Shown here: in pieces, positions 1,449 through 62,138 of the stretch
How the letters are laid out: the number at the start of each line of letters is the position of its first letter
Position numbering within the stretch: the first letter of the stretch is position 1
Virus record (IMG/VR): IMGVR_UViG_2785511464_000001
Location: 31,771 to 95,770 of that record
Source of the DNA: a virus
Lineage: Duplodnaviria > Caudoviricetes
Length of the DNA: 64,000 bases
Reading direction: 5' to 3' (one strand)
Notes under the pieces: model-generated
Seen by the model: only the letters and a program-made list of their open reading frames with translations
Told to the model about the DNA's origin: nothing
Databases searched by the model: none
Program-made: the position numbers and the translations under genes

Positions 1449-1476
1449 CGTGTGCAATTAATTGCAATTTGGTCTC

Positions 1477-1506
1477 AGGGGGAGGGTGGTTTCACTCTCC
1501 CCCTTT
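1477..1506 (+). terminator. Hairpin, probable terminator after the tail tube gene
   Basis: AGGGGGAGGGTG-GTTT-CACTCTCCCCCT-TT, 10 bp after the box at 1453. Confidence 0.55.
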
Positions 1507-1522
1507 GCATTTGGAGGATCAG

Positions 1523-1720
1523 ATGGCCGGGTATTCCGTCCGGGTTTACGTGGTGCAGCTCGCTGATGCGCAGGGGAACCTGACCGGCCCCGTGGTGGCT
1601 GCAAAGCTCACGTACAAAGCAGCGCACGAGATCGCCAAAGAATATGCGCCGGCAAAGGTGACTCCGATGATTGCCGACAAGTCCAGTGTGCCGAATAATC
1701 CAGACTTTCATTCGACTTAG
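1523..1720 (+). CDS. Small hypothetical protein
   Basis: GGAGG RBS then ATG at 1523 (MAGYSVRVYVV...). Confidence 0.55.
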   Translation: MAGYSVRVYVVQLADAQGNLTGPVVAAKLTYKAAHEIAKEYAPAKVTPMIADKSSVPNNPDFHST

Positions 1721-1786
1721 ACATCGGGTTTTCAGATTATCTTTACGCCCGCAGGGTATTCTTCTTGAAAGAAGGAGGATCACCCC

Positions 1787-2170: not shown

Positions 2171-2289
2171 CTCCGGCGCGGTTTTTGGTCCAGCGAGTTT
2201 GCAATTAATTGCACGGGCCTGATGCCTCTAGTAGGTTGCCGGGACTGCTCATAAGGGCAGCCACCGCCACGCAGCCAGGAGGCAGATTG

Positions 2290-3203: not shown

Positions 3204-3231
3204 TGAAATTAATTGCACACGGTGATGCCCC

Positions 3232-6200: not shown

Positions 6201-8034
6201 GAAGGACAACCTGATGGACCTGACCAAGGACTTCGCCTCCGGGCTGTCCGATGCGCTGGTCGGCGTCTTTACGGGGCAGAAGGGGGCCATCACTGGTCTT
6301 CTGCGCAACCTGGCGACCGGCATGGTCCGCCTGGGCGTGAACCAGATCATGAAGAACATGGTGCAGAGCTTTCAGGGCGGCGGTGGTGCGTCCGGGATGG
6401 GCAAAGGCGGCATCGGCGGGTTCTTCTCCCGCCTGTTCGGTCGGGGCGATCAGGAGCAATCCCCGGCCAAGGACGCAGCCAGCACCGTGCAGGATGCCGT
6501 GCAGCAGATGACGGCGGCCAATATGACGGTAACCGCCGGCACCGTGATGATCAACGGGTCTCCGGTAGGCATGCCCGGCGTTGGCGGCCCTACGACCGGT
6601 TCGATCTCCCAGCGTGGCGGAATGATCTTTGATGAGCTCATGCCGTCCGGTGGCGCGGCCAACAGCAACCTCGCCGGCCTTGGGTCGCAGATCAACTCGG
6701 CTGTGGCTCAGTCGGCGTCCTCTGCCGTGGACAACGCCACGAAGTTCCTCGGCATGAGCGAGCATACGAACGCCAGTCAGCTGAACTCGTTTATGAAGTC
6801 GCAGGGCGTGGACATCGACGCGGCCAAGACCGCTTGGTGCGCGGCCTTCGTCAACACGAACCTGGAGGCGGTCGGTGTGGATGGCACGGGCTCGCTGGTA
6901 GCCAACTCGTTCCTGAAGTGGGGCGACGGGGTGAACCCGCAGGACGTGCTCAAGGGCGACGTTCTCGTGCAGCACCGTAACAAAGGCTACGGAAACACGG
7001 GCGGGCACGTGGGCTTCGCCACGGGCAACACCAAGATGTCGGAGCAGGGGCTTCTCCTGGAGATGCTGTCCGGCAACGAGAAGGATCGCGTCCAGAAGTC
7101 GTGGAAGCTCGCCGACCAGGTAGCCGTGCGCCGCGCCAGTGCCGAGATGGGCAACGCCCCGCTGGATGCCATGTCCACGGCCTCCGTTCCCGAGGTGTCC
7201 CAGCTGACCAACCAGTGGCAGCAGCAGATGGCGACGGCAAACGCGAATATCGCCCAGCAGATGCCCCAGGCGTTTCAGGCCCCGATGCAGAACGTCGGCC
7301 AGCAGTTCGACCAGGTGTTCGCTCAGGGCGGCAGCGCCTTCCAGCAGGTGGCCCCGCAGATGCAGAACATCGCCCAGCAGGCGCAGTCCGTGGTGCCACA
7401 GCTTGGCGGTGTGGGGCAGGGCCTGACGAGCCTCATGGGTCCGCTCGGGCAGATGGTGCCGGGTCTGAACGACTTCCAGAACGGTCTTCAGGACGCCCTC
7501 AAGTCGATCCTCGGCTCCGGCGGTGGCGGCGGTGGGGGTGGTGGCATCCAGTCCATCATGAACCAGCTGATGGGCTCCCTCGGCGGCGGTGGCGGCGGTG
7601 GCATGTTCGGCGGCATCTTCAGCATCTTCAAGCTTCTGCTCGGCGGCCTGTTCCACAAGGGTGGCGTGGTCGGCGACGGTATGCCCGCCTCGGGTATGCG
7701 CGCTCTCCCGGCCAGCGCCTGGAACAACGCTCCGCGCTTCCACAAGGGTCTGAAGAGCAACGAGTACACCGCCATCCTGGAGCGCGGAGAGCGCGTCCTG
7801 ACGGCCAACGACGACCGGCGGAACATCAATCTGATCGAAGGTCTCTCCGAGCGTCTGGATGCCCAGAGCCGGCAGCGCGCCCAGAACGATCGATCCCGGT
7901 TCGGGAACGGGTCTCAGTACAACCAGAACATCACTGTTTACGCCGAGGACGCGAACAGTTTCCGCCGCAGCGAAGGTCAGCTCATGGCCGACAGCTCGGT
8001 GCAGCTGCGCAGGCTCGGTGGACGAAACAGCTAA
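3232..8034 (+). CDS. Tail tape measure protein with embedded TIGR02594/CHAP-like domain
   Basis: 1600 aa; TP901-like core, coiled coils, AWCAAFVN...GHVGF motif, C-terminal FHKGGVVG...APRFHKG. Confidence 0.9.
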   Translation: MNGEELEFILRMRDEATAILDKVGGGLGKAGKGAKGFSDENKKVSRSLGDVVKQAKAATAALGGMYGSMRMLRSATNAWSDYQLGLVGVVKTTGMAGRELDVFRGKFDQLDRTMKGISTQQIHALSETVGQLGVTGSDNIVAMTEVLAKLGVTTDIVGQEGASSVARILTLTGEGAKGVREFGDALNYLGNNSAASESEILRMATVLAQSTAEFGISGKNILALSAGARQLGVSFELFGTSSGRVLRNLRDGMMANTTGFRTFLSVAGMTREEFQKLLAEKPEQVIVRFAQAYAQMTGSGGSAGFLQALGLNTDEIKRVFGAIGVQVEAMQEKLNLVQSDEMYGALDREAEQFFAAQANQLDGMAKAWKSFNASVGEALAPLTGPVIEGVTQALYGLSDAISGLPAGIKQVAAAGIVLAPAIGGIAAAFKVLKPLLVSVGMWKTASGGVGILAKAVGGLKGAVSLAGRVISRTWPVLVGLLAGEAARAGGDWIAEWAERNLGETTLSKLAAFRKEYEGFFDFMAQDLVTGVIQSGPNAGINYRTGQREYEQNDKGEWVKYTPKVELQPDWGDGIGSTLRDRVQDEVDAAGPVRIPVTEEDYDALKALNSQIGLLEDIRAQEEALNRIRESGMDMLRNHNDALSEQDVERAQRLLDLKKEAAADPVGWSLRDLDSEIDAARAVTSEQKHQLAIREKVREIVEQTGESEERVLGRVTAKMNELRDAQSKMNFNDMIRDYNSDIEAARAVTVEARMELEVREAIRDLQEEGKKLDEEQVAAIRGKVQELYKVQQANAFEDQMRAARSSLDIARATTEAERERLQIKQQIDAFERQHGKLAPEDRQQLAAALAAKNQAEAFGQLRSTLDPVGEATRQYEQNVQTLNQALADGSITAQQYQDMLNRLNVTTQDARDPFGAQIRSMQEALQVARMTGDYRDADVKTLQTINRLQEQGVTLSQTQKDQIAAMNRELQDIEKARGSGLQGWASGIGSLKDNLMDLTKDFASGLSDALVGVFTGQKGAITGLLRNLATGMVRLGVNQIMKNMVQSFQGGGGASGMGKGGIGGFFSRLFGRGDQEQSPAKDAASTVQDAVQQMTAANMTVTAGTVMINGSPVGMPGVGGPTTGSISQRGGMIFDELMPSGGAANSNLAGLGSQINSAVAQSASSAVDNATKFLGMSEHTNASQLNSFMKSQGVDIDAAKTAWCAAFVNTNLEAVGVDGTGSLVANSFLKWGDGVNPQDVLKGDVLVQHRNKGYGNTGGHVGFATGNTKMSEQGLLLEMLSGNEKDRVQKSWKLADQVAVRRASAEMGNAPLDAMSTASVPEVSQLTNQWQQQMATANANIAQQMPQAFQAPMQNVGQQFDQVFAQGGSAFQQVAPQMQNIAQQAQSVVPQLGGVGQGLTSLMGPLGQMVPGLNDFQNGLQDALKSILGSGGGGGGGGGIQSIMNQLMGSLGGGGGGGMFGGIFSIFKLLLGGLFHKGGVVGDGMPASGMRALPASAWNNAPRFHKGLKSNEYTAILERGERVLTANDDRRNINLIEGLSERLDAQSRQRAQNDRSRFGNGSQYNQNITVYAEDANSFRRSEGQLMADSSVQLRRLGGRNS

Positions 8035-8060
8035 GCAATTAATTGCAATCGGAGAGAGAC

Positions 8061-11874: not shown

Positions 11875-12326
11875 TGCTTGAGCGCAAGAGGATCGTGGAC
11901 ATGGCGCGGGGTTGGCTGGGCGTCCGGTATCGGCATCAGGGGCGGTCCAAGGAGCGTGGTGTCGATTGCGTCGGCCTCATACTCGGGGTAGGTGCTGAGC
12001 TCGATTTGCAATTAATTGCACCGCAGTTCTATGCCGAAAGCCCAAGCTCCAATCTGGTCCTGCGCTACGCCGATCAGCAGCTGAACCCCATCGAAAGCCG
12101 GGAGTTGGCTCTGGGGCGGGTAGCGATCCTCTGGGGCTTCGACCGTAACGAGGCGCAGCACCTCGCAATCGTCGGCGAGCACGCGGGCCGGCTGACCATG
12201 ATCCACTCCTTCAGCAAGGCGGGGAAGGTTCTGGAGCACAGCTGGGACAGTTTCTGGATGAAGCGTCTGGTGCGGGTCTACGAGTTCCCCGGCACCGCGC
12301 CGTTGGAGGAGAAGACCTATGGGTAA
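11874..12326 (+). CDS. NlpC/P60 tail peptidase (GTA g14-like)
   Basis: ARGWLGVRYRHQGR...GVDCVGL...HLAI...MIHS. Confidence 0.9.
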   Translation: MLERKRIVDMARGWLGVRYRHQGRSKERGVDCVGLILGVGAELDLQLIAPQFYAESPSSNLVLRYADQQLNPIESRELALGRVAILWGFDRNEAQHLAIVGEHAGRLTMIHSFSKAGKVLEHSWDSFWMKRLVRVYEFPGTAPLEEKTYG

Positions 12327-14934: not shown

Positions 14935-17900
14935 ATGGCACAGACCCCTCGACTTGGCGTCCGTCTGATGGCGTCGAATGACATTCAGAAAGAGGTGGTG
15001 TTCAACGAGGCTGCCGTGGTCTTTGACGCCATGGTTTCGCGCTCTGCCGCAGCCATTCTGGCAAACCCTCCAGCCAGCCCTGCGGCGGGTGACACCTACA
15101 TCATCGGCACCCCCGCATCCGGCGTGTGGGGTGGTCGTGAGAACTACGTGGCGGTCTACTTCAACGGCTGGCGCTTGTTCTCGCCGATCCAGAAGATGAA
15201 GTTCTTCAACGAGGACACCTCGTCCTTCTGGACCTACAGCGGCTCCGGCTGGACTGAAGACCCCGCAGGCACACCGTCCACTCTGGATGATCTCACGAAT
15301 GTGGGCGTCGCTGCTCCGAACGACGGTGACGTGTTGACTTACAGTCTCGCGGACAACCGATGGGTCGCGGGCTCGGTGTCGGTCGTCACCGCCTTCACCA
15401 ATCTGACCGACGTCGCGCTGGCCGGGCTCGCTGACGGCCAGATGCTCGCCTGGGATGCGACCAACGGTGTCTGGGTGAACGTGAACCCGCCTTCGGGGGG
15501 CGGCGCAACAAATCTGGACGAGCTGTCTGACGTGTCTGTCGGAACACCCGCCAATGGTCATCTGCTGACCTGGCACGATGGGCAGGCAGTCTTTCAGGAG
15601 TACGCATTCCCTGCTGCCGAGCTGGGGCACCTCACCGATGTGGTGACCGCAGGCGCTGAGCCGAATGACGTTCTGGCGTTCAACGGGTCCGCCTGGGGGC
15701 CGAGCCCCGCCGTCATCACTTACTCGTTCCTCGGCATGGTCGATGGTCCCCAGACGATGGAGACCTTCGCTAACCACTTCCTCGTGGTCGATCCGACCGA
15801 GAGCTTCCTGGAGTTCCGGTCGCTGGCCGAGCTGATCGCCGAGCTGGAAGACTTCAACCTCCGAGACCTCTCGGATGTCACGGCTCCGAGCGACCCTGCA
15901 GTCGGCATGTTCCTGCGCCTGAACAAGGTCGGCGGCGAGTATGTCTACGACTACGCGAGCCAGACGGACTACTCGATTGCGGCCAGCGACAGTGGCAACC
16001 CACTGACCAGCAAGATCGAGAGCCTGAACTTCAGCGGGTTCGACGTGTCGATGCCGGCGGAGGGGCACCTGATCCTGACCGCCCAGAACGCGCTCGACTT
16101 CCTCGGTGAGGGCTTGCCCGTCGAAGGCGATCCCGTCGATGCAATTAATTTCATTGGTGCGGGCGTCAACGTCACGAACATCGATGGCACCCTGACCGTG
16201 GACATCGGTGATCAGGAGCTGGTGGCCCGTCTCGGCGATCTCGAAAACGTCGATCTCACCACCCCACCCGTGGATGGCAATGTCCTGAAATATGACGGCC
16301 TCACGCAGTCCTGGGTTGCCGGCGTCGGGGGCGGGGGTGGCGGCGCACCTATCGGTGACAGCGAGTATGTCCCTGCGACCTATGAATACGGCCCGTTTGC
16401 GCCTCCCGTGGCAGCGATGTTCCCCGGTCGACACAACGCCCCCTCGGCCAATTTGACCGAAGTCGCGGCGCGGGGCCTCGTGGTGCAGGGTGGGGCGCAG
16501 AGCAGCGGCGCAAAGCACGCTCTGGTCTACCGAGACCTCGCCGTCCGGGAGGAGCCCTGGGTGGTGACCGCCCGCGTCGTGCCGGCGTCGTTCCAGGTGC
16601 CTGGGCATATGGGCGGCGTCGCCATCCAGCGCGCCTTCAACGATGCCTTCGTGTTCCTCGCCCTCGGCAACTCCAGCACCGATGCTCAATCCCAGCTGCG
16701 CCTTGGTTGGGTCAGCCCCTCGGGTGTCGAGACGATCTTGACCACCGAGCCCAACCTGTACAACTGGCTCCGGCTCGGGTTCGACGGGGATTTCATCCGT
16801 GCATGGGTCTCCTCGGACGGTCTTGTCTGGCAGAACTTCGGCAGCCCGGTGGACCCGGCGGCCACGCTGCAGGGCGTACCGGATCGCGTCGGCATCACCA
16901 ACCGGTCGAATGCGGCGCATGACGGCACCGTGGGAACCCTCGTCACGTTCTGGGAAGACCCGGACTTCCCGGCGGGCACGCGCACACAGCAGGGTGTCGT
17001 GGCTCTGGGGTTGGGTGGCCTTCAGGACGTGGACCTGACGGTTCCGCCGCAGGATGGCGAAACCGTCGTCTGGAACGCTGTCCAGCAGGCGTGGGTGCCT
17101 GGTGCCGCCTCGGGTGGCGTGGACGTGGGGGCGTCCGACGAAGGCGATGTCCTCCAGTTCGTCAACGGAGATTGGGCATCTACGACGGTCGTAGATGCCT
17201 TGAACCACCCTCGGCAGGTGCCGCCCGTCGCGCCACAGATCGTCCAGCACAAGCTCAGCCCACCTGTAGAAAGCGGTAATTACTCGGTGACGCTGGACTT
17301 CGCTCCGACGGAGGGTAACTGGCTCATCTGCATCCTGACCTATCAGTCTACAGTCCCGGTGGCGGAGGCTGGCTGGACGGCAGTCCCGGTCTCTACCACG
17401 GGCGCGCGTATCAACACCGTTGTCTATTACCGGAAGGCCACCGCCGGATTGGGACCTGTCCTTCCCGTAGCTGATGCTGGCGCTGCGGAGTACGGCTACG
17501 CGGTAGTCTATGAGGTCGCGAGCCAGACCCCGGATTGGGCCTCGCTTGCGGAGGTTGTTCAGGGTGCGTCCGACGACCAACTGGCCGCACCTTATGATGG
17601 GACACCGTATGTAGCGTCCGGCCCGGCACGCACGGTGCTGCTTGCCTACAGCAACCGCACTACATCCACCTCCGACAATCAGGGGCTAGGGGCCGGGTGG
17701 ACTGAGGACCAGAACTTCGACGGTCAGTCCGTCGGCGAAAATCGCGACTTTGTGTGTGGGCACGCCTTTCCCGCAGACCAGGAGACGCTGACGCCTTCTC
17801 TGGTCAATCTCACAGGGGAGAGCCATGTCGGTTATGCGATGGTGGTCCTCGCACCCGTCACGGAGCCTCCACGTGGAGTGCGCCTCGCTGATCTGTACGA

Positions 17901-23413: not shown

Positions 23414-23432
23414 ATTTGCAATTAATTGCATT

Positions 23433-23462: not shown

Positions 23463-23570
23463 GATAAACCGCGTACCGGTTTGTCGAGGTTCCCGCGACA
23501 CATGGCAGGGGGACTGCTATACAGGCGGAAATGCAATTAATTGCACAAGCCCGCAGGTGTCGAGGTTCCC

Positions 23571-25407: not shown

Positions 25408-25614
25408 CCAGCGAAGAACGTGACCCTTGGCCGGCGATCCTCGTGATCGGTTGGCTCTTTCTTCTGCTGCTCGCCCTGCCGGGCACCGCGCGCACAGCGA
25501 CGCCAGCCGAGATCGACCATCCACAGGCAAAATGCGGCGAGTGCAATTAACTGCACTTGCCTCGCCCAGACAATCTGGCATAGTTGAGGGGTAAGCCAAG
25601 GAGGGCGAATACCT

Positions 25615-26826: not shown

Positions 26827-26867
26827 TAGAATTGAAATTAATTGCATCAAATCAAAGGAGTGACCTG

Positions 26868-27560: not shown

Positions 27561-27580
27561 GGCGCGCAATTAATTGCAAG

Positions 27581-33780: not shown

Positions 33781-33907
33781 CTCCCGATTTGTGCAATTAA
33801 TTGCAAATTTCCTGCGGTCCCCATTTGCAGGAAATGTGAGAGGCAGTCGTCGTCCCCCGCCCAAACCTCGTGCGGCTGCCTCTCGCTTCTTTCTTTCGGA
33901 GACACCG

Positions 33908-35653: not shown

Positions 35654-35686
35654 TCCCGCGTTCAGTATGCAATTAATTGCACAGGA

Positions 35687-39148: not shown

Positions 39149-39261
39149 TTGCATCAGGGAATTGAAATTAATTGCACAACTGTTAGTGTCGATGGGTCAA
39201 ATTACCAACGCTGCCACGGAGGGCTTCTGTTGGTCTGGAACCCAAGCAAGGAGTAAGTCGC

Positions 39262-40470
39262 ATGAGCGCAGCAAGCCTGAGCCTCCTGAAGGGCGGCAAG
39301 AAGACTGCCGTGGAAGAAGAGCTGGACACCACTGCCGAGCAGGCCGAGGAGACCGCGCAGGAAGAAGAGACTGAAGAGGTCGAAGAGGCTTCCGTCGAAG
39401 TCGATGGCATGAGCAGCAAGGAGCTGGATGCCCTGGTCGAAGAGTTCGGCGTTGAGACCCCGGCGGAATGGTCCGGCTGGGACGCGGACGCAAAGCGCGT
39501 CTGGCTGAAGGAACAGTTCGACGATGGTTCCTCCGAAGAAGAGGAGAAGCCCGAGCCCGAGCCCGAGCCGGAAGCCGAGAAGGCCCCTGCGAAGAAGCCT
39601 GCCGCCAAGAAAGCGCCGGCAAAGAAGCCTGCTGCTAAGAAGGCCCCGGCCAAGACTGAGGACGCCAAGACGGAGGCCGCGCCCAAGGCCGCGAAGAAGC
39701 CGGCCAGCAAGGCCCCTGCGAAGTCCACCAGCAAGAGCGGCGAAGTCTCGAAGCCGGGTGACGACGCCCTTGTCGATTTGATCCACGAGATCGAGACGAT
39801 GAAGGAGAAGGAAGCCCGCAGCCTCGTCACCGAGCTGTCCGAGCAGACCGAGTTCACCTTCTTCAAGCTGGGCGGCGTCCTGTCGGTCATTCAGGCCAAC
39901 GGCTGGTACGAGCCCTATGCGTCCTTCCGCGAGTTCGTGGAAAACGAGCACGGCCTGCACTACCGCAAGGCAACCTATTGGGTCGGCATCTACAACAACC
40001 TCTCCGAGAGCAAGGTTCCGTGGTCGAAGGTGTCGCACCTTGGCTGGACCAAGCTCAAGGAGATTGCCGGCGTCATCACGCTCGACAACGTTGACCAGTG
40101 GGTGAAGGTGGCCGAGGGCCAGACGACGCTCCAGCTCATCGAGACGGTCAAGGCGCATCTGTCGAAGGACACGCCCAAGGGGATCGAGGATCAGACCTCG
40201 AAGACCGTGACCACGAAGACCTTCAAGGTCCACGAGGAGCAGAAGCAGGTCATCGAAGCGGCTCTCGAAAAGGCCAAGTCGGAGTCCGGGACTGCCGTGG
40301 ATACGGTGGCCCTGGAGTACATCTGCGGAGACTACCTGTCCTCCCAGACGATGGCCCAGCGCCTGAAGAGCCTGGGTATCGAGGCAGCTCTGGAAGCTTT
40401 GGAAAAGGCTTATCCGAACGCCGCGATCAACGTCGAGCTCACCGAAGGCGAGGAAGACGAGGCCGCGTGA
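39262..40470 (+). CDS. Putative DNA-binding protein: acidic N-terminus, H1-like PAKK repeats, HTH-like LGWTKL domain, RHH-like C-terminus
   Basis: KAPAKKPAAKKAPAKKPAAKKAPAK; domain shared with 46746..47264 and 53958..54650. Confidence 0.65.
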   Translation: MSAASLSLLKGGKKTAVEEELDTTAEQAEETAQEEETEEVEEASVEVDGMSSKELDALVEEFGVETPAEWSGWDADAKRVWLKEQFDDGSSEEEEKPEPEPEPEAEKAPAKKPAAKKAPAKKPAAKKAPAKTEDAKTEAAPKAAKKPASKAPAKSTSKSGEVSKPGDDALVDLIHEIETMKEKEARSLVTELSEQTEFTFFKLGGVLSVIQANGWYEPYASFREFVENEHGLHYRKATYWVGIYNNLSESKVPWSKVSHLGWTKLKEIAGVITLDNVDQWVKVAEGQTTLQLIETVKAHLSKDTPKGIEDQTSKTVTTKTFKVHEEQKQVIEAALEKAKSESGTAVDTVALEYICGDYLSSQTMAQRLKSLGIEAALEALEKAYPNAAINVELTEGEEDEAA

Positions 40471-41058: not shown

Positions 41059-41208
41059 GCCCGCAAACATACCGTTTGCCCTCTCGACCGGCAACGCAAC
41101 GATTTCTGTGAAATTAATTGCATTTTTCTCTGTACGCCACGGCCCCATTTGGTAGACTGAGGTCATAGGGAATTACCCGATCTCACCGTGCCAAGGAGGG
41201 CAAGAGAT

Positions 41209-41467: not shown

Positions 41468-42049
41468 ATGAACACCCAGATCGAAAACCTGAAAGCGGCA
41501 CTCCCGAGGGTGCCTGCTCGCCAGCAAGACTTCGCCGGCTCCCTGATCCATCAGTTCGAGCGCAAGGGCGATCTCTCCAACAAGCAGTGGTATTGGGTCC
41601 AGAAGCTGGCCGAGGACGCCGAGTTCGCCGGGGTGCCGGACTTCACCAAGGAGACGGAAACCGTGGGCCAGATGCACGGCCTCATCAAGCTTTTCGAGAC
41701 CGCCAAAGAGCATCTGAAATACCCGGCTATAGCCCTTCAGCTGCCCGACGGCGGGCCTTACGGCAGCAATGTCTGGTATGGCCGCGTGTCGCCCGATGGT
41801 GTCTGGCAGAAGTCCGGGGCCGTCGAAAGCGACCTCGCCATGTCCCGCAAGGTACAGACCCTGCTCAAGGCTCTGTCTGCGGACCCAGCCGGCACTGCCA
41901 GCGCCTACGGGAAGCTGACCGGCCATTGCTGCTTCTGCCGCAGGAAGCTCGAAGACGAGAAGAGCACGGCGGTCGGATACGGCCCGGTCTGCGCGAAACA
42001 TTATAACCTGCCTTACGGGAGCAAAGTCAGCGCCTTCAATTGCAATTAA
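41468..42049 (+). CDS. DUF6011-type Zn-finger protein
   Basis: C-terminal CCFCRRKLEDEKSTAVGYGPVCA. Confidence 0.7.
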   Translation: MNTQIENLKAALPRVPARQQDFAGSLIHQFERKGDLSNKQWYWVQKLAEDAEFAGVPDFTKETETVGQMHGLIKLFETAKEHLKYPAIALQLPDGGPYGSNVWYGRVSPDGVWQKSGAVESDLAMSRKVQTLLKALSADPAGTASAYGKLTGHCCFCRRKLEDEKSTAVGYGPVCAKHYNLPYGSKVSAFNCN

Positions 42050-42282
42050 TTGCACAAAGAGCCCTGAGTACGACGATCTGTACGTCAGTGTCGATGGCCG
42101 CGTGTTCAGGGAGGTCATCCCCGAACCCGGCTACGACGGGTAAAATACGCAGAGCGCCAATGACGTACGAAACGGGCTTCCAATTGAGTTGTTAGGTCGT
42201 CTATGCTAGCCGCTGCGTGGTCGCGTGCAGATAAAATTAAGTTTATGGAAGAACCGGTCCTGAATTTCTGTGGGGGAATGAG

Positions 42283-44680: not shown

Positions 44681-44882
44681 CACCCCTTAGAAAACGAGGT
44701 TGCGCTGCTTAGAAAATGCGGCGGCGCGACCGTTAACCATCACCTGTTTTCCGCACTCGACAAGTGCAATTAATTGCAATTTTGGCTGTACGCCAGAGAC
44801 CAACTTTGGGATGATCAGATTATCGGGAACCCAACGGTTTCCAGAAGGTCAACCCGACAGGGCATGTAGCAAGGAGGCTAGA

Positions 44883-46228: not shown

Positions 46229-46311
46229 CCATCCCGTGCAATTAATTGCAAATCCGAAGGACAGGGGAGCGCTCCATCGGCAAGATAAAATGAGACAAAA
46301 GGAGAAGTGAG

Positions 46312-47264: not shown

Positions 47265-47342
47265 CGTCTTTAGTCGTGAAGGGTAGTCGCGGACCCTTCA
47301 TGCCTACAGGTGCCAGATGCAATTAATTGCACGGAGATCATC

Positions 47343-47594: not shown

Positions 47595-47689
47595 GACAGT
47601 TGTGGGTCTATTGGAAATTAATTGCACACGCCTGACAAATCTGTAGAGTGGAATGTGCAATTAATTGCAAATGACCAAGGAGGGTCGAA

Positions 47690-49998
47690 GTGAGACTCAA
47701 GATCACCATGGAGATCGAGATCGGTGACATGACCGACGAGCAGCGGGAGGAGCTGGAAGACGGCATCAGCTTCGTCAGCCGCGACAAGATCGGCACCGAT
47801 GGGCTCCCGGCAGATGAGAACGCCGAGGGCTATGTGCCACCCGTGCCGACCCTGGCGGAGCAGAACCCCGAAGAGGTCATTGGTACGATCACCGAGGCGA
47901 TGTCCTTTCTGATTGAGTGGCAGGAGGACGTGTGGGCCGGCAGCGATGTCTATGCCCGCATCTCGAAGATCAGCAACGTCCATGTGGAAGAGGTGGACGA
48001 ACCGCCCTGCGTCGCCCAGCGCCTGCTCCAAACTGCCGAGGCTGAAGGTCTGACGATGCGGGTCTACGCATTCCCGGACGAGGTGGATTACGAAGGCACC
48101 AGCGCCCGAGACGCTTGGGAGCACGTGCTGGCCTGCGAGGAGATGCACGTCAGCTTCCACCGTGAAAATGCTGATCTGGGTCGGGCTTTCATCCTGCCCG
48201 ATCTGGACCCTGACGAGAGGGTGTCCGACTACGCCGGGGCGTGGGTCCAGAACTTCTTCGAGAAGCAGGGGAACGCCGATGGCTGAGTTCATGAACACGC
48301 CGGGGCAGGTGAACCAGCGCGCATCCGACGCGATGTCCGCAGACGGCATGGATGCATTCGGCAAGCCTGTGCCCGCGTACCGCAAACAGGCCGCCCTCGA
48401 CCATTGCAGGCAGATGGGCCTGACCGACACGAACAAGGCGACCGGGGTCATCAACCGAATGGCCGCTGCAATCGGACGGGACGAGCCCTACGCGGCGATG
48501 GAGGCCGGCATGGCCTATCTCGACCTCACGGGCACCTACCGCCTGCTGGCGGTCCTGTGTACCACCCCGCCAGCCGAAGTCGGCTGCAACAAGGAGCCCC
48601 GGACCCAGCACCCGGAAGTCGCCTTGGAGCATCCCCACGTCGTCTACGAAGAGTGGGGGTTCTGATGAGCGCGCAGGTGAACACCTATGTCATGTTCGGG
48701 GTGATCCTCGACTACGAGCAGGCGCACTCCGTCTGGCGGCACGACGACCCTGCGCACCCGTCACTGTTCGATGTCCTCGAACCCTACATGGATGATGCGT
48801 TCAAGACCGAAACCAACCCGAAGGACGGGCTGACGGTCCTGTATGACGGCATGTGTGGCAAGTACATCGCCATCGGCCACGTGATCGCCAAGACGGGGAA
48901 CTTCGAGCACTTCGAGAACCCCGTGTCGGCCATTGGCGACATGAAGGCCCCGGCCAAAGACTTCCTCGAACCCCTGAGCGCGCTTTTGACCCGTCTCGAC
49001 CTGCCACCGGGTGCACCACGCAGTGCCCTCGGCTGGCACGTCATCAGTCACCACCGATAGGGAGCCCCATGACCCCCAAGCAACAGTACGAACGCCGCAG
49101 GGCAGAACGGGAAGCCAAGCTGCGCGCCAGCGAGACGCGGTACGGTCGCCCCGACGTCATCGATGAGAAGGACGTGGAGATCACCGATCTGATGGATCGG
49201 TTTGTCACCGCTGCCGAACGCATCGCCGATGCCCTGGAGGCCCAGAGCGCCCCCACGGCAGAGATGGTGGATCGGGCTATCGATGCAATCGAAGGTGAAT
49301 TGAATGGCGTCGCGGCCACAAAGGGGCAGGCCCGCGCCATCCTTGAACACGCACTCCAGAATACCTGAGACCTGGGGCAAGTCCCCGACACGAGGAGAGA
49401 ACCATGGCGCAGTTGCGCGTACAGCTCGATGACACCGCCGGCATGACGGACGAACAGATGAACCTGCTCGCAGACAGGGGTGTGGTGTTCATGACCACCA
49501 CCGAATGGGGCGGGGTCTCGCGCGGCGGTAGCATCATCGCGAGGTCCGAGGAACATGCCCGCGAGATCGCCGAGAAAAGGGGCGTCGGCGAGGAGATCGT
49601 CGGCACTTTGGAAGCGGCTGAAAACGTGGGATGATTGTGCAATTAATTGCAAAAGGAGAATGAGCCATGACGTGGCCTGAAGCAGCTGTGCAGATCGCGA
49701 TCATCCTCGGCCTCGTGCTGGTGATGCTTGCCATCCTTGGTAGGGGGCGGCGGTGAAGATCAGCAGAAGCTACCCGTATCTGTCCATCGCCAAGCACTTC
49801 GGGGTCGATTACGGCGACGTGCTGCTGGTCGCTCAGTACCGGGCGCAGGGAGACAGCCGCAGCCCGAACACTCACGAGTGGGGTGCAATCCGCCGTGTGA
49901 CCACGGACGTGAACCTCCTGGTGTTCAAGGATTTCGCCGCCGCCATCGATCAGGCGATCCGTGAGTTCCGCCGCATCCAGAAGGAGGGCTGGGACTGA
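47690..49998 (+). CDS. Run of small hypothetical genes (47690-48286, 48279-48665, 48665-49060, 49069-49368, 49404-49634, 49753-49998)
   Basis: Co-oriented, coupled or RBS-preceded ORFs; no recognisable motifs. Confidence 0.6.
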
Positions 49999-50860: not shown

Positions 50861-50884
50861 CAGACAGGACGTGGGGGAAGTGTT

Positions 50885-51214: not shown

Positions 51215-51327
51215 CCTGGAGGGCGCGGTTCGCTGCGCTTTCTTTTCGCAAATAACGTGCAATTAATTGCACGTAGCCTGACAGGCTGGCAGAATGGAAC
51301 AGGATCAAGACCAAGGAGGGTCGATAG

Positions 51328-52512: not shown

Positions 52513-53116
52513 ACTCTGGGGGGGGCGGCGTTGAAGTGGATAATCGCTAAAATCGAGAGATGGTGGGAGGGAGAGTATCGTCCCTATGAAAATGACCCGA
52601 GGAACGGAGTCATTGTTATAGGCGGATATTTCGAAAGACACTGGACTTCGAACGCGGCACGGTCGGTTGTCGAGCATCTTCAGGAACACTGGAAGTTCTG
52701 GATCATGGCGACCATAGCAGCGGTCACGGCGTGGGCAGGTGTAGCTGCGTTGAACAACGAGGACATAGGGCATGACCAAAGTCAGCCGGGAATTGCTTCT
52801 CCTGATCGAGGCGCGGCAGTGGCTAGAGATACTGATCCACGAGACGAGCCTGGACCCAGCGACAACTAGAATGGAGTCTGCTTCTGTGGGGTCGGACGGC
52901 AGGCGAACCACCAGTACCGTAACCCTGGCGGAGACGTTGGATAAGATCGACGGCTTGGACGTGCCCGTAACAGACCGGGCCGACAATGATACGTGAGCAA
53001 TTCCAAATGAATAATGTGAAATTAATTGCACTGTCGCCGGTTCGGTGGCAGTGTAGATTTATGGGATCAACCAAGGAGGGTGACATGATCCAGACCAAGG
53101 CACTCGGGGGCGCTGA

Positions 53117-54650: not shown

Positions 54651-54678
54651 TCTGCGATGCGCAATTAATTGCAAGGAG

Positions 54679-55878: not shown

Positions 55879-55881
55879 TCG

Positions 55882-56334
55882 ATGACGGCTTCCGAGGATC
55901 GGTCTTTACCCAGCGAACGGCCCAAGGGGTGGACTATTGTGACATCGAAGACGGACACGGGCAGCCGAAGGGACGCCATACGCGAACGAATAAGGGCAAG
56001 GGTGGTGGAGGCCCCCGCACCCGACTGGATGCCGGCGGACCTCGGCCCCTGTCTGCTCTGGACCGGCCCGACGAGCGGTGACGGGCGAGGGGGAGGATAC
56101 CCACGCATGAGCCTGAACGGGCAGACGGTGGCTGTGCACATCGTGAACTGGACGAACGAACATGGCTACGTGCCCGGAAAGAAGCAGCTCGATCACCTCT
56201 GCCGCAACCGGCTCTGCATCTCGGACAGGCACCTTGATCTTGTCACGCCCAAGCAGAACCAGAGGAGGAAGGTGGAAGCGCGCTCGCTGAACCGCCACAA
56301 CGGCGGTCCTCCCTTGCGTGATGAATGCAATTAA
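55882..56334 (+). CDS. HNH endonuclease (HNH_3 type)
   Basis: CLLWTG...GYPRM...H...LDHLCRNRLC...HL..VT..QN. Confidence 0.85.
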   Translation: MTASEDRSLPSERPKGWTIVTSKTDTGSRRDAIRERIRARVVEAPAPDWMPADLGPCLLWTGPTSGDGRGGGYPRMSLNGQTVAVHIVNWTNEHGYVPGKKQLDHLCRNRLCISDRHLDLVTPKQNQRRKVEARSLNRHNGGPPLRDECN

Positions 56335-56349
56335 TTTCACGGAGACGTC

Positions 56350-57056
56350 ATGAACTATCCTGACACCACCACCGAGCCCACCAATCACACCCGCAGGGCG
56401 GCAGCGGAGGCAAGCTTCCAGAACTACACCGACGCGCAGCTTGCCCACCAGACGGTCGTGGTGGGCCGTACGGACGTCAACCTGGCGCAGATGCAGTACG
56501 CGGCGCGGGACCGCATCCTGAAGCTCTCCTGTGAGCTGTGGGACGCCCGTCAGCGTATCGCTCAGCTTGAAGAGAAACTGGCAGAGAAGGAGAGCGCAGA
56601 GTGCACTGAACTTCACCGGCCCGCGCCCGCAGTGTAGGGTCAAGGAGACTACCAGCAACCAAGGAGGGGGTCGTGCATATGACCATCAGAGACATCATCG
56701 AGAACTGCTTTTTGATTGCAGTCTTCTCTTTCCTGATCGCCTTCCTTTTCGTATGATCGTGTGCAATTAATTTCACGGAGAAAGCAATGTCGGGAATTTC
56801 GACAGTGATGAAGAACGCGTCCAAGGTTCAGGAGATGGACAGCGCCCAGGTGTTTGCCAATGTGCTGAACACCGACCTTCACGCCATGAAGTCGTATAGC
56901 GGGACCGTGAACTACCAGCCCGCCGACGCCATCCGCCTTTCGCGCATCCTCTCGGAGTATGAGCAGATGAACGTGGCGTCTCTGCGCAGTGACCAGCCCA
57001 AGCTTCAGGGCAAGGAGCCGCTGCGCGATCCGAAGCACGTCTTTGGCGCTTCCTGA
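56350..57056 (+). CDS. Two hypothetical genes (56350-56637, 56787-57056)
   Basis: Each preceded by the identical TGCAATTAATTTCACGGAGA box-RBS unit. Confidence 0.6.
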
Positions 57057-57544: not shown

Positions 57545-59211
57545 CGAAGACGACACCCAGCCCCGAAGCCCTGAAGCACGCCATTTTCTCGCAGCACGAC
57601 AAGCCTGAGCGCTGGGTGGCACTGGACGAGATCGAGCAGTTCCTGCCGGACCCCGAGTTTTACGCCCTGTTCGTCGAGGTGTGGACCAACAGCGAGAGCA
57701 ACGACCTGAACCTCGGATTGATCGACCGCCTGATCGACCGCAGGGGTGTGCACGCAAACGTCGTGATGCCCGTCCTGAGCGACGAGGACCGGCGTCTGAT
57801 GACCATGCTCAGGCGAAACCCCCGTATCTGCCGTGGCGCTACGCTTGAGAGGCCGTACAGCGACTATTCGTGGAGCGTGGATCGGGGCAAGGCCCTCTGG
57901 TTCGCCAACCGATGCTCTGACGCCACGCCAGTCATGATCGAGGGGATCGCGGACACCGAGAAGGTGCTGTTCACTTATATGGGGCGCGGCGAGTCCGAGG
58001 TCGCCATACGAACCTGCGATGTCCACGACAAGCTGGTGAACGTGATTGGCCCGTACAGGAGGTGCGAGAGCTTCGAAATTTTCTCTGCGGTTCAGCGTGG
58101 CGGGGACGCGGCCTTGTTCGATCCACTGGTGACACTTCAGATGCGTCTGATGCACCAAGCGCGAACGCGGGACGTGACCGAGAAAAGCCTGATGGCCGAG
58201 ATGGAAGCATGGATCACGGACCTCGAAGACATGGGCTTCAAGGCCATGCCGCAGAAGAAGCGTGAGCTGGTCGCGCGGATCGATTGGTCTACCGTGATGT
58301 CGGCATCCGACTGATGTCGATTTCGTGCAATTAATTGCAAATTCTGGTGGACGGGAGCCGGCACCCTGGTAAGATTGAGGCATAGGGAAATCCAACCCAC
58401 TCAACGCGCCAAGGAGGGCGACATGAGAAAGACATTTGGCCGGAAGCGTGAAATTAAATGCACTCGCGACTTTGATCGCCGCAAGGCGCAGGCCGTGATG
58501 CCGAAGAGTGAACGCGAAGACAACGACAACTGGAATGGTGGTCGTGGCTCCAAGAAAGCGTTCGATCTGCCGTCCCAGCCTGTCGATCAGACCGCCCGCA
58601 AGGTGCGTGTCGAAGGTCTCGTCTTCTACGTGATGATGGCTCTCTTCCTTGGCGTCGTCATTTACTCCGGCTGGACCGTCGGTGCCCAGCTGTTCACCCC
58701 CGTTATCGAAGCCCTGCAGACCATTGGAGGCTGATGTGCTGAACGCGTTTCAGGCAGCGATCATGGAGGCAACCGGCGTCGGTATGCCCGACGAGTTGGC
58801 CCAGATCGAGGAGATCATGCGTGGCGAGAACAATCGCCCGCTTGATGAGTTATCGCAATCCGAGTTCGCAGACCTGGCGCGGGACGCCAAAGAGGCGAAC
58901 GACATCGTGAAGGAGATGGGAGCTTGACCGTACCGTTCCAGCAAGAGATCGAGAACCCGCTGTTCGAGCAGACTGATTGGGACGATCATCAGGTGATCGT
59001 GGTCGGTGTGCACGAGAAATACAGGTTCAACGACACGTCGGTGACCGGCCTGATCCGCATCATCAAGCCTGACGACGATACGCTTGGCGACGTCGAGTCG
59101 TTCAAAGACCTGTTCGGCAACGAGATCGTGACAGATAGCGCAGGTGCCCGACGCCTCGCAAAAACGCTCCTTGAGGCCGCAGACGCAGCGGATGCCCTGT
59201 CGTCGAAATAG
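57541..59211 (+). CDS. Hypothetical genes (57541-58314, 58423-58734 with TM helix, 58736-58927, 58924-59211)
   Basis: Co-oriented, with RBS or coupling. Confidence 0.6.
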
Positions 59212-59293
59212 CGAAATTAATTGCACTTTCGACTGGACGCCATGCACCCATTTGGTAGTATGGATTGTACCAATGAGCCAAGGAGGGCTAGAC

Positions 59294-61713
59294 ATGAGTG
59301 CATTTCAGAGCGATGTTTATCAGGCATTCCGATCCGTAGAAGTCCCGGAGGATAAAGCCTTGAAAGCAGCAGAAGCCTTGAGCGTACGCGACAAGGACGT
59401 CAACGATCTCAAGCACGACGTATCCGTCGTCAAGTGGATGGTGGGCTTCGTACTTGCCATGCAGCTGGCAGTTTTCTTGAAGGCATTCATTCCCTTCTGA
59501 TTTTCTTTGGCCGGGGCTGTGCAGTTAATTGCACGGCCCTCGCTACACGCAACACTCAGGCAGGAGAGAAAGATGCCGAAGCTGAGAAACGGTTCGAGCG
59601 AGATTGGCAAGTTCACGCAGTGGCTGGGCCGCAAGTGCCGCAACCACAATCCTCTCGAAGAGCTGTCCCTGAAAAAGAGACGTGACGGGTCCGGCGTCTT
59701 CCTGACCCGCAAGGGCAAGACGGCGCAGGTCGGTGCGGTGGCAAAGGTGCCAGATCGCTACAAGGCGCGGTCCAAGGGCAACATGTCCGTCCTGGAGGAG
59801 GATGACGGCGTGCTGCTCTACGAGTTTGGCGAGCGCTGCTTCGAGATCACCGTTCGAGAAGTCGAGCCCGAAGAGTATGCCGAGAAGGCGAGGGTTGCGG
59901 TCGGTTACTGACCGCCCACGGAAGGCTGGATGACTGTTTCCGGCTCCGGTTTCACAAGACGGCCTTTGAAAATGTCCAGCAGAAACCGGGCACCTGCCAA
60001 GGAGGGCACCATGAAGAGAGAAGTCGTAGCGCCGACCGTCGAGAAGGACGAGAGCGGTATTCGCCCCGATGATACGATCAGCAGGCACCCTGCTTTTGGC
60101 GGGATCGTCGCGCACCGCATTTCTGGGCACCGAGCCCTCTTCGGCAGCGACTTCCGACACCGGCACTTCATGCGCGTCACGATCACGACGAGCGAACACG
60201 TACGCAGCCTGTCCGGTGATCGCTACCACGGCAGCCTGCGCTCGATCATTGCTGTCGATATGACGGAAGCGCAGTGGGCGGAGTTCATCAGCGCGCCGAA
60301 TATCGGAACCGGTGTGCCCTGCACAATCGATAGCTTCAACGGCGAGATGATGCCCCTTCTGCCTGACCCGGAGGACAAGCGGGACGTGTTTGGCCGGGAG
60401 GCGCGTAAAACGCTGGACGACGGGCTGCGCGAGCTCGATCAGGTCATGGAGATGCTTGCCGATACGAAGGGGCTGTCCAACGCGGCCCGCGAGCGGCTGA
60501 CGTCCCGGATCGATGCGGCCAAGCGCCAGCTCGGCCCGAACATCGACTACGTGGCCGAGCGGTTCGGCGAGCATATGGAGGAGACCGTAGCCAAGGCCCG
60601 GCAGGAAATCCACGGCCACATGGTTCGGCAGCTCACGGGTGGCGATCCTGACGCGAAGGCTCCTCTGGAACTACCGGCCCCTGAGCCGAAGACCAAGCCC
60701 GGCAAGATAAAGATCGTGAAGAAGGTGCCCAAGGGATGAAGCTCTTGCACGTCGCGACTGTCGCGATCCTTGCAGCTGTCGTGATCCTCGGGCAGGCCGC
60801 CCTGGTGAAGCTGGGTGAGCCCCAAGCCGTGTGGCTGTATTGCCGCATGTTGTCGTTCTGCAATTAATTGCAAAGGCAGGAGAAGAACGTGCCGATCATC
60901 ATCAAGAAGAGGGTGCTGAAGAAAAAGCCGGCCCCGGACGCGCTGGTGGAGCCCCGGCCTCAGAAGCCCGCAGCCAAGGCCCCGCCGCCGGCCACCGAGC
61001 GGACGCCCTTCGAGAAGCTTCCGGTCGCCGCGTCGGTGGAGGAGCTGTTTGCCAGCGGTGGCAAGATGCGCGCCCCGGCTCCGACCACCTGCAAGCTGTG
61101 CGGGCACCTGTACGGCTTCCCCTGCCACGGCGAGAAAGCCACCTGCATGAACGCGAAGTGGGCTCGGGCGCGCGGCAAGGAAGTGGCGGCGTAGTGCCGC
61201 CGGGGATTTATCTGACAGGGAGAAACCGATGTCCTTTTTTCAGCAGCTGGAAGGCGAGGCCGCCGTCGTCATAGAGAACGGCGTGTACAAGCAGGTCGAT
61301 CTGTACGCTCGTCACGGCAGGCTCTACGCCAAGGTGGCCGGCGGCTTCGTCAAGCTGATGGCGGATGGGTCCACCACCAAGGCCCGCATGCGCCTCGAAA
61401 CGCTCAGCTTCGACGGCGATTTGTACCGGGACAAGATGGGTCGCCTGATGGCGGGGCCGGGGGACGGCGCGATCAAGATCGATACCGACCGCGCTCTGCG
61501 GCTTCTGGGGAGCTCTCAATGAGATCGAACCTCGAAGACATCGACGTGTGTATGCACCACCAGACCCACTCTGCTGTGCTCGTAAGCGATGACGGCAACG
61601 AGGCGAATGCCGTCTGGATACCGAAGTCCATGTGCGAGCTGGAGCACAAGGGAGGGCGCTCCTGGGTGCTCACCGCCGAGCAGGGTTACCTCGAAGACAA
61701 GGGGCTGGTCTGA
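59294..61713 (+). CDS. Hypothetical genes (59294-59500, 59573-59911, 60011-60739, 60736-60867, 60889-61194, 61229-61522, 61519-61713)
   Basis: Co-oriented, with RBS or coupling; 59294-59500 is a coiled coil with C-terminal TM helix. Confidence 0.6.
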
Positions 61714-62108
61714 TGGCTATCGTGATCAAGCGCAGGGTGAAGGCTCCAAAGCCGCAGCCGGTCGTCTCCCGGAAGCAGGCACCCGAGCATCTGGATAGCA
61801 TGTGCCTCGGTGTCCTGGGGCAAAGTCCTGACGCAGCGATCCCGTGGTGGCTGATGGCGAGCTACCTCTACTACCACCACGACGTGTCCCTGTTGTCTGA
61901 CGGGCTCTACGACATGATAGCCAAAGCCATGCTTGAAGCGTGGCCAGAGCTGGAGCACGATCATAAGCATCTGATCACGGTCGATGACCTAAAGGCCGGC
62001 ACGCTCTTCCGGCTGACAGCCAAGGACTACCCCAACAGGACGAAGGCTGCAGCGGTCGGTCTTGTGGATAGCAACATGGGGCTATCCATCAAGTACATAC
62101 CAAGCTAG
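61713..62108 (+). CDS. Stand-alone NAD-dependent DNA ligase domain-Ia-like protein
   Basis: ASYLYYHHDVSLLSDGLYDMI matches the LigA Ia pattern YY..D...SD..YD; no adenylation domain. Confidence 0.6.
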   Translation: MAIVIKRRVKAPKPQPVVSRKQAPEHLDSMCLGVLGQSPDAAIPWWLMASYLYYHHDVSLLSDGLYDMIAKAMLEAWPELEHDHKHLITVDDLKAGTLFRLTAKDYPNRTKAAAVGLVDSNMGLSIKYIPS

Positions 62109-62138
62109 TGCAATTAATTTCAAAGAAGAGTTTGCGCG

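Follow-up and report, generated by a model that had tools for sequence, protein, structure and literature searches.

The window analyzed here, a stretch of 64,000 nucleotides, comprises positions 31,771 to 95,770 of the virus record IMGVR_UViG_2785511464_000001 (Duplodnaviria; Caudoviricetes), i.e., the final 64 kb of a record of 95,770 bp; its G+C content is 60.8%, its genes all lie on the plus strand, and it is punctuated throughout by copies of a short palindrome, TG(C/A)AATTAATT(G/T)CA, hereafter the box. The tail genes in the window are of the gene transfer agent (GTA) type, with phiJL001 gp84, BR0599 and Rcc01698 domains, and 3' of them lies a replication and recombination module encoding an AAA ATPase, an O-like initiator, DnaB, RNase H, a primase, a gp32-like protein, a helicase, a RecA-like protein and resolvases; the phage further encodes Cas4-like, RuvC and HNH proteins. 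At the right end, a large serine recombinase gene (62339-64000; Resolvase, Recombinase and Zn_ribbon_recom domains) runs off the end of the window and is likely the prophage integrase. The opposite end of the record (genome 1-1908, minus strand; 'genome' coordinates refer to the whole 95,770-bp record) has a gene for a 635-aa tyrosine-integrase-like protein, perhaps part of an adjoining element. The record sequence was also found within a 3.98-Mb NCBI chromosome (GCA_003296175.1), and it therefore represents an integrated temperate phage. Judged by terminase, the cultured phages nearest to it are RcZahn of Rhodobacter (60%), which is syntenic with the studied phage, the Stenotrophomonas phages DLP5, DLP3 and Summit, Rhizobium phage RHph_TM16 and a group of 80-kb Vibrio siphophages; a megablast search of a phage collection with 8.8 kb of the studied phage returned no match. 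Below, G000 denotes the studied phage, and G001-G005 and the L-numbers denote compared genomes and loci.

A two-fold symmetric word at gene junctions

The consensus is clearly non-random: it has 28 exact matches in the window as against 0 in 100 shuffles, and TGCAATTAATTGCA, when searched at up to two mismatches, has 37 matches against 0.08 expected, the first beginning at 1453 and the last ending at 62122, in keeping with the about 38 copies reported over this span by an initial annotation of the DNA. The whole record holds 52 copies, approximately one per 1.8 kb. As judged by information content, the palindrome reaches 18 bp, tgTGCAATTAATTGCAca, with the flanks beyond it not conserved. Its only common variants in the studied genome are a C>A change at position 3 (13 copies) and the mirror G>T change at position 12 (7 copies), which never occur together, and the AATTAATT core is unchanged in 48 of the 52 copies; this symmetric variation around an invariant core is as the initial annotation had described it. 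The two TGCA arms are 10 bp apart on one helix face, around a YYRR-type center, and the arrangement TGCA-N-TGCA is enriched at a spacer of 6 alone in all 10 of the 10 sequences counted.

In a genome that is ~88% coding, about 44 of the 52 boxes (~85%) lie between genes or across a stop codon, and most of these are 0-20 nt behind the upstream stop. The TAA internal to the box is the actual stop codon in five window copies, and boxes within genes shun the frame that would read it. Their density is uneven: the 20-kb tail-gene block (3232-23413) has just three boxes, as against 23 between 39 and 62 kb. Both the preference for gene junctions and the crowding of the early/accessory arm relative to the tail genes had been pointed out from the sequence beforehand, and both stand.

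Certain boxes come in pairs, namely 39140/39163, 47613/47656, 23417/23532 and, in genome coordinates, 3465/3519 and 2189/2399, whose members are respectively 23, 43, 115, 54 and 210 bp, or 2.2, 4.1, 11.0, 5.1 and 20.0 helical turns, apart. The paired boxes are thus mostly on one helix face, which would allow cooperative binding or looping; the pairs are too few for a test.

Selection on the box and its spelling across phages

Comparison with G001, whose terminase is 85% identical, finds all 32 of the 32 alignable orthologous boxes kept, with 97.5% identity across the 14 bp as against 62-81% in the flanking 10-nt bins. The box is under strong purifying selection. The same pair of genomes bears on the proposal that the boxes are recombination or nuclease signals, i.e., junctions for the exchange of modules between related phages, or targets or anchors of a phage endonuclease or recombinase. 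Consistent with this, the boxes stand at gene junctions, several G000/G001 homology breakpoints fall 0-15 nt from a box, and RecA-like, Cas4-like, RuvC and HNH proteins are encoded by the phage. However, 10 of the 48 breakpoints lie within 50 nt of a box, which is no excess over gene junctions in general, ~30% of which carry one; the HNH gene is not part of the core; and such a signal would leave unexplained the copies within genes as well as the promoter register and even spacing described below. Hence, we regard a recombination signal as very improbable.

On the side of the host, TGCAATYRATTGCA has no copy in 374 of 401 alphaproteobacterial genomes and one to three copies in 26, and in a 4.8-Mb metagenome-assembled genome (MAG) all 41 of its 41 copies are on one 96-kb phage contig. 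This control consisted of 401 alphaproteobacterial genomes other than the host's and the one MAG; the host chromosome CP029208.1 was not scanned whole. From this near-absence, and from the confinement of the MAG copies to the phage contig, it follows that the box is not a host repeat.

Among phages, the box is conserved, with lineage-specific variants, in those infecting both alpha- and gammaproteobacteria. Each of the related phages, the cultured RcZahn and DLP5 among them, has 20-50 copies; G001 has 52, G002 has 38 and G004 has 41. The center reads TTAA in the studied phage and G001; TCAA in G005 and DLP5, where TGCAATCAATTGCA or its complement has 40 and about 30 copies, respectively; TCGA or CTGA in G003; CTGA or CCAG in G004; and a looser mix in RcZahn. 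At 78 loci of uncultured relatives (G+C content 37-64%), most have the form GCAAT-NN-ATTGC, with altered arms (GGCAAT, TCCAAT, TGAAAT, GGAAAT, TGACAT or TGCAAC) in a few lineages. That the spelling is uniform within a genome and differs by lineage points to a co-evolving phage-encoded reader rather than a universal host factor.

The alternative of a host reader, namely a nucleoid-associated or defense-related protein exploited by phages and islands alike, would suit the presence of the box in phages of two proteobacterial classes and in an unrelated integrative island. But host-type chromosomes are essentially free of boxes, such that a host protein would lack sites of its own, and the spelling follows the phage lineage, not the host class: DLP5, a Stenotrophomonas phage, shares TCAA with G005, and RcZahn is mixed. 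A host reader thus seems scarcely credible. The island itself, of ~10 kb, is from another alphaproteobacterium (L047 7110-13335; G262:C2:445109-451244) and has the same 18-bp box 10 times, four copies being within its primase gene in one frame. It encodes a tyrosine integrase, the 1086-aa DnaG-type primase, an HTH_3 protein, a resolvase, a 442-aa AAA-like protein and a BrnA antitoxin; the regulatory gap beside its HTH_3 gene has no box. We speculate that it may be a satellite that copies the operator of a helper phage.

A further possibility is that the box acts as an RNA hairpin in polycistronic transcripts, i.e., as a processing site, a stabilizer or a translational element 5' of ribosome-binding sites. 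All of the genes share one strand, such that read-through transcription includes every box; some 10 boxes are found 1-5 nt 5' of a Shine-Dalgarno sequence; and the computed fold of the consensus 18-mer is at -6.8 kcal/mol (z = -2.8). Against this, 20 of the 52 copies (13 + 7) bear an uncompensated change in one arm that drops the stem to -0.7 kcal/mol, with no compensated double variants, and the register described below is kept to -35 hexamers and not to start codons. Further, the coding strands of genomes with an asymmetric center carry it in both orientations (24:18 in G005 and 19:9 in DLP5). We accordingly reject a structural RNA as the main function on account of the uncompensated one-arm variants, and rate an RNA hairpin of any kind as highly implausible.

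In sum, the box array is real, strongly selected and phage-family-wide. A literature search did not find the box or its TCAA/TTGA forms in a phage context, and the papers on RcZahn and DLP3 mention no such repeat; the system was apparently not described in the literature searched.

Promoter register, spacing and the sign of control

Ten boxes in the studied genome stand exactly 8 nt upstream of a -35 element (TTGnnn or TGKACG), which is followed after 16-17 nt by a TAGRAT-like -10 element, and nearly all recognizable sigma-70-type promoters of this genome show the same layout; the genes they serve are of the early/middle type and not those of the structural block. The register recurs across 554 boxes from 78 non-redundant relatives, where the gap between box and promoter is 8 nt in 28 cases and 7 nt in 8, with 0-4 cases at each other gap from 0 to 30; at gaps of 7 and 8, the controls gave two cases each on the opposite strand and two each at random positions, of which five times as many were sampled. 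Given a 16-nt spacer, the 14-mer covers about -56 to -43. Approximately 6-20% of boxes are coupled to a promoter in this manner. As to other contexts, ~10 boxes in the studied genome precede a GGAG ribosome-binding site by 1-5 nt, and a strong terminator-like hairpin stands 0-10 nt 3' of five.

Copies inside genes are prominent in some relatives: in DLP5 and G005 they make up about two thirds of the boxes, almost always in the frame xTG-CAA-TYR-ATT-GCA, and the box near the 3' end of the O-like initiator gene of the studied phage is also present in the matching gene of both. The boxes tend moreover to be evenly spaced, the coefficient of variation (CV) of their spacing being 0.5-0.7 in G001, G002, G004, G005 and DLP5 versus 0.97 for random placement (P <= 0.001), and the closest pairs in G004, G005 and DLP5 are no nearer than about 250-790 bp. 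The in-gene copies and the even spacing are better explained by a lattice that covers the genome than by a pure promoter element.

Taken together, the box is on balance probably the operator of a phage-encoded, dimeric, sequence-specific protein that forms a genome-wide control lattice, with a net effect that is more likely repressive; that a protein binds the box, which protein it is and the sign of its effect are points that we infer. The reader, itself two-fold symmetric, would bind ~50 sites and thereby lay a control lattice upon this temperate 96-kb siphophage. At the sigma-70-type early/middle promoters, a protein 8 bp 5' of the -35 element would sit against RNA polymerase, as does the plasmid repressor KorB at its promoter-proximal operators (OB). 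The remaining boxes, behind stop codons, before ribosome-binding sites or terminators and within long genes, might serve as roadblocks or insulators against read-through. The even spacing and the in-gene copies would suit roadblocks to read-through as well as sites at which a spreading protein loads. Some observations count against this reading: spacing in the studied genome itself is not significantly even (CV 0.91), an exact register to the -35 element is also typical of activators, and several of the -35 hexamers are weak (TGTACG, TGGACG).

The last two points bring up positive control, whereby a protein 8 bp 5' of the -35 element would recruit polymerase, by a contact with the C-terminal domain of its alpha subunit (alpha-CTD), by one of the class-I type or as a protein-made UP element, and turn on the early/middle promoters, the promoter-less copies being spare or of low cost. 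An exact 8-nt (sometimes 7-nt) register, as seen across 78 sequences, is characteristic of activators in contact with polymerase, the box lies in the UP-element zone, several coupled -35 hexamers are poor, and nearly all recognizable promoters of the studied genome have a box. Yet the bulk of the boxes are uncoupled to promoters, the coupled promoters of other lineages have a consensus TTGACA that needs no help, and an activator has no use for even spacing or for copies inside long structural genes; further, KorB, a repressor, also keeps a fixed proximal position (PMC11790492). As for a UP element proper, an A/T-rich alpha-CTD site at -40 to -60 that the conserved host subunit reads, the position of the box fits, but its G/C-containing arms are the most conserved part, its spelling depends on lineage and most copies are without a promoter. 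We deem the activator reading unlikely. As to the sign alone, net repression, i.e., prophage silencing, is somewhat favored over activation because the phage is temperate, KorB offers a parallel, the -35 elements elsewhere match the consensus, boxes also occur in genes and at gene ends, and the layout at one promoter, taken up below, resembles autoregulation; activation was weighed for the exactness of the register and the weakness of several -35 hexamers.

Table 1. Boxes and phrog_17202 genes in the window (window coordinates; strand '.', no strand given; hairpin energies in kcal/mol)
Feature	Coordinates	Strand	Context
box	1453..1466	.	perfect; 4 nt past stop of 415-aa gene; terminator-like hairpin (-23 kcal/mol) begins 10 nt downstream
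box	2200..2213	.	perfect; intergenic; hairpin 20 nt 3'
box	3204..3217	.	TGAAAT arm; abuts preceding stop; 14 nt 5' of tape-measure gene ATG (3232)
box	8034..8047	.	AGCAAT arm; overlaps tape-measure stop codon; next ATG 13 nt on
box	12007..12020	.	perfect; within 150-aa gene; frame xTG-CAA-TTA-ATT-GCA
box	16140..16153	.	TTTCA arm; within 1167-aa tail gene
box	23417..23430	.	perfect; 3 nt past stop of 1308-aa gene; hairpin (-26.6) immediately 3'
box	23532..23545	.	perfect; next start 25 nt on; previous box 115 bp away
box	25542..25555	.	1 mismatch (AACTGCA); 59 nt 5' of AAA-ATPase gene
box	26833..26846	.	TGAAAT arm; 6 nt past AAA-ATPase stop; then ribosome-binding site
box	27565..27578	.	CGCAAT arm; hairpin (-18.6) 2 nt 3'
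box	28702..28715	.	TTTCA arm; within O-like replication-initiator gene (27729-28796), stop 81 nt on
box	30652..30665	+	2 mismatches; 2 nt past DnaB stop; + 8 nt + TTGTCC + 16 nt + TAGGAT promoter
box	32843..32856	+	TGAAAT, TGA = primase stop; + 8 nt + TTGACC + 16 nt + TATCCT promoter; 5' of gp32-like gene
box	33792..33805	.	perfect; hairpin 1 nt 3'
box	35668..35681	.	perfect; GGAG ribosome-binding site 1-2 nt on; ATG 35696
box	39140..39153	+	perfect; holds RuvC-gene TAA stop; first of tandem pair (23 bp apart) 5' of candidate reader gene
box	39163..39176	+	TGAAAT arm; second of tandem pair; 85 nt 5' of candidate reader ATG
candidate reader P0001, 402 aa, phrog_17202	39262..40470	+	conserved C-domain, predicted ParB/KorB-like helix-turn-helix fold
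box	41109..41122	+	TGAAAT; + 8 nt + TGTACG + 16 nt + TAGACT promoter
box	42041..42054	.	perfect; holds DUF6011-gene TAA stop
box	44765..44778	+	perfect; + 8 nt + TGTACG + 17 nt + GATGAT, weaker promoter
box	46237..46250	.	perfect; 5' of 114-aa gene preceding paralogue P0002
P0002, 171 aa	46749..47264	+	paralogue of the helix-turn-helix part of P0001; phrog_17202, E 7e-10
box	47318..47331	.	perfect; GGAG 1 nt on; ATG 47343
box	47613..47626	.	2 mismatches (GGAAAT); next box 43 bp away
box	47656..47669	.	perfect; 20 nt 5' of GTG 47690
box	49638..49651	.	perfect; 3 nt past stop; ribosome-binding site 3 nt 3'
box	51258..51271	.	perfect; intergenic; next ATG 56 nt on
box	53017..53030	.	TGAAAT arm; intergenic
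box	54660..54673	.	CGCAAT arm; GGAG 1 nt on; ATG 11 nt on
box	56326..56339	.	TTTCA arm; holds HNH-endonuclease-gene TAA stop; next gene's GGAG 1 nt on
box	56762..56775	.	TTTCA arm; GGAG 1 nt on; ATG 56787
box	58326..58339	+	perfect; + 8 nt + TGGACG + 16 nt + TAAGAT promoter
box	58449..58462	.	degenerate, 2 mismatches, core broken; within 103-aa gene; membership doubtful
box	59212..59225	+	CGAAAT; abuts preceding stop; + 8 nt + TGGACG + 16 nt + TAGTAT promoter
box	59520..59533	.	1 mismatch (TGCAGT); intergenic
box	60859..60872	.	perfect; holds TAA stop; then ribosome-binding site
box	62109..62122	.	TTTCA arm; abuts TAG stop; final box before serine-recombinase gene

Two side observations concern these contexts. 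The gene whose stop lies in the box at 56326 encodes an HNH_3 homing endonuclease (55939-56334) and is otherwise present in G001, RcZahn and G005 only. At many genes of both the studied phage and RcZahn, the Shine-Dalgarno context CCAAGGAGGG is very strong and uniform; in G004, CCAAGGAGTGGG and a promoter word, CTTGACGAAC, recur ~25 times instead.

Candidate readers and kindred systems

As a candidate for the box reader we advance, at a probability slightly short of even, the phrog_17202 core protein P0001 (Table 1). It was recovered by tblastn in all 7 of 7 full-length relatives, its orthologues including gp66 of RcZahn and gp067 of DLP5, and it is the sole DNA-binding candidate examined that has this spread; the family counts 283 homologues on record and is without a Pfam family. 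The protein has an acidic N-terminus, PAKK repeats of the histone-H1 type in its long forms and a conserved 238-aa C-domain, whose AlphaFold model (pLDDT 88) aligns with the parS-bound ParB DNA-binding domain (DBD; Z 7.2), with Spo0J (Z 6.5) and with the KorB DBD (Z 5.8), which rank 2, 4 and 6 among 48,161 chains compared; for the chain from the KorB DBD-operator complex, 107 of 114 residues are aligned to the model. A putative recognition helix reads xYRKAxYWxxIYNxL, and the segment comprising KTFKVH, a helix, G-T and a further helix looks, from its sequence, like a ribbon-helix-helix (RHH). At the promoter of the P0001 orthologue, 27 of 69 lineages have a box in their own spelling, in most cases at 7-8 nt from a TTGACA of consensus form; in DLP5 this copy is the genome's sole perfect TTAA palindrome, and in G000 and G001 a tandem pair 23 bp apart occupies the position. 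A box at the candidate's own promoter is the layout expected of negative autoregulation. The promoter of the paralogue P0002 (TTGATT-17-TATGGT, genome 78444) is without a box.

The case for P0001 has to be set against the following. Its Z scores, all below 8, are middling for a helical protein, and the fold match is thus a lead and not proof; a Foldseek search of PDB returned nothing at E <= 0.001, and neither did a search of PDB sequences with the family profile nor a Pfam scan. No counterpart of the candidate was found in the box-bearing island, with its 10 copies; Vibrio phage SIO-2 does encode a homologue and has just four boxes in 40 kb; and the orthologues of G003 and G004 have promoters without a box. 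Some pairing of recognition helix and box spelling was seen (an RTI helix with GGCAAT arms and an SKA helix with TCCAAT arms); it is confounded by phylogeny, contradicted in L080, L115 and L119, and was not counted as evidence. Domain scans did not find a ParB_N domain in P0001, and a protein-atlas look-up returned solely sub-threshold matches to the DUF3102, Plasmid_parti_N and DUF1016/ParB-HTH clusters (scores 0.86-0.89).

Another DNA-binding protein, the HTH_3 (Cro/CI-type) protein at genome 4006-4308, was rejected as the universal reader, because tblastn (E <= 1e-5) finds it in G001, RcZahn and L040 alone; the island, as noted, also has no box in the regulatory gap beside its own HTH_3 gene. 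The O-like replication initiator (27729-28796), with the conserved box near the 3' end of its gene, is a further possible reader. Outside the window, at genome 3563-4308, its 100-aa gene directly follows a GNAT acetyltransferase gene, with two boxes upstream and one downstream; the two genes resemble a toxin-antitoxin-type pair and are syntenic in RcZahn (gp134-135).

A separate case is the canonical ParB-family protein whose gene adjoins those of the terminase (genome 9093-9992), for which the boxes might be parS- or Noc-binding-site (NBS)-like loading sites: a CTP-type clamp would spread from them to coat or mark the chromosome for plasmid-prophage partition, packaging or protection, with secondary effects on transcription. 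At the sequence level, this protein matches solved chains of ParB, Noc and KorB (E 2e-11 to 4e-9), and it retains the arginine patch for CTP binding in a GEHRWRA version; the even ~2-kb spacing and the in-gene copies would suit a clamp; its own gene contains a box in G000 (49 nt inside, and kept in G001), G001, G005 and DLP5; and DLP5 is reported to persist as a phagemid (PMC5834331). On the other hand, the family hidden Markov model (HMM) matches G000, G001, G003, G005, RcZahn, DLP5 and L040, and at E 0.1 it finds no orthologue in the complete G004, which has 41 boxes. The presumed helix-turn-helix (HTH) segment is acidic and poorly conserved in relatives, none of the scanned proteins looked like a ParA partner, the phage integrates by a serine recombinase, and the exact 8-bp promoter register is left unexplained. 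We therefore consider a spreading ParB clamp quite unlikely.

Returning to the phage-encoded dimeric operator protein, a more specific version of this reading can be stated, tentatively. In it, phrog_17202, a CTPase-less HTH protein of the ParB/KorB fold with an RHH-like segment and, in some members, an H1-like tail, would read an evenly spaced lattice of 30-50 palindromes, by which the genomes of a whole clade of temperate siphophages, 80-100 kb in size and infecting alpha- and gammaproteobacteria (including the cultured RcZahn, DLP3/DLP5 and RHph_TM16), would be silenced and insulated. Their sigma-70 promoters would be gated from 8 bp upstream of the -35 element, and small integrative islands would copy the operator so as to sense the phage as its satellites. 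As a whole, this fuller version is possible and rather doubtful.

Among known systems, the KorB-OB system of the IncP-1 plasmid RK2 is the closest analogue in geometry, closer than the L5 stoperators. Its OB sites lie 4-10 bp upstream of proximal target promoters, with others far off or inside genes (PMC11790492), much as certain boxes lie 8 bp 5' of a -35 element and others are far from promoters or in genes. In both cases a palindromic operator is present in many copies round one replicon (52 in 95.8 kb here), for a global regulator of a mobile element in the case of KorB, and the model of the candidate reader aligns with the KorB and ParB DNA-binding domains (KorB DBD PDB 1r71, 8qa8). They differ in that RK2 is a conjugative plasmid with 12 OB sites of another sequence, as against ~50 sites in a phage. 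The candidate further lacks the ParB N-terminal CTPase domain, such that no sliding clamp would be expected, and has in its place segments that are acidic or histone-H1-like. Neither a partner resembling KorA nor a second site resembling OA was identified, and there is no homology to KorB at the sequence level.

The stoperators of cluster A mycobacteriophages (L5 gp71, Bxb1 gp69) are asymmetric 13-mers, biased in orientation relative to transcription and bound by a monomeric-type repressor, and they are thought to silence the prophage through a block to elongation. They resemble the boxes in numbering tens of copies, ~1 per 2 kb, in short intergenic gaps near stop and start codons of a temperate phage. 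However, the box is a two-fold palindrome of 14-18 bp without orientation preference, and it keeps a fixed register to the -35 element. No repressor akin to gp71 was seen, a search aimed at one not having been made, and the only HTH_3 protein of the phage is not conserved in the family. The analogy to L5 stoperators drawn in the initial annotation fails on both asymmetry and orientation, whereas its general proposal of a phage-wide regulatory or organizing site read by a homodimer gains support from the selection, the conservation, the near-absence from hosts and the 8-bp register; the three of its own refuting checks that could be carried out all turned out in its favor. The box system works most like KorB-OB with a stoperator-like density and yet does not fit either class in full.

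Two further comparisons are less apt. The consensus of parS is TGTTNCACGTGAAACA and that of the NBS is ATTTCCCGGGAAAT; by inspection, TGCAATTAATTGCA shares neither core. Noc of Bacillus subtilis and chromosomal ParB (PDB 6s6h, 1vz0, 7ol9) likewise use 14-16-bp palindromes and an HTH dimer, with many scattered copies in the case of Noc, and the phage does encode a true ParB-family protein. But that protein was not found in the complete box-bearing G004, no membrane-binding or ParA partner was seen, and promoter coupling is not a feature of Noc or ParB. The 434/P22 Cro/CI (HTH_3) operators are 14-bp sites, six per genome at two switch regions, and the center of the 434 operator is read indirectly. 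With them the box shares a 4-6-4 layout, with conserved 4-bp arms one helical turn apart around an A/T-rich center; the difference is that the HTH_3 protein of the studied phage is not found in most array-bearing relatives.

If the proposed reading is true, a single short DNA word together with a single protein would govern a whole class of large temperate phages that includes cultured Rhodobacter, Stenotrophomonas and Rhizobium phages under consideration for therapy, and a widespread phage protein family without a function would gain one. With RcZahn and DLP5 in culture, the box system is directly testable. The many-site global control typified by KorB and the stoperators would thereby be extended to a new reader and a new geometry, and the fixed 8-bp register would amount to a portable operator-promoter module. 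In evolutionary terms, the lineage-specific spelling would represent a natural experiment in which a regulator and ~50 dispersed sites have changed together.

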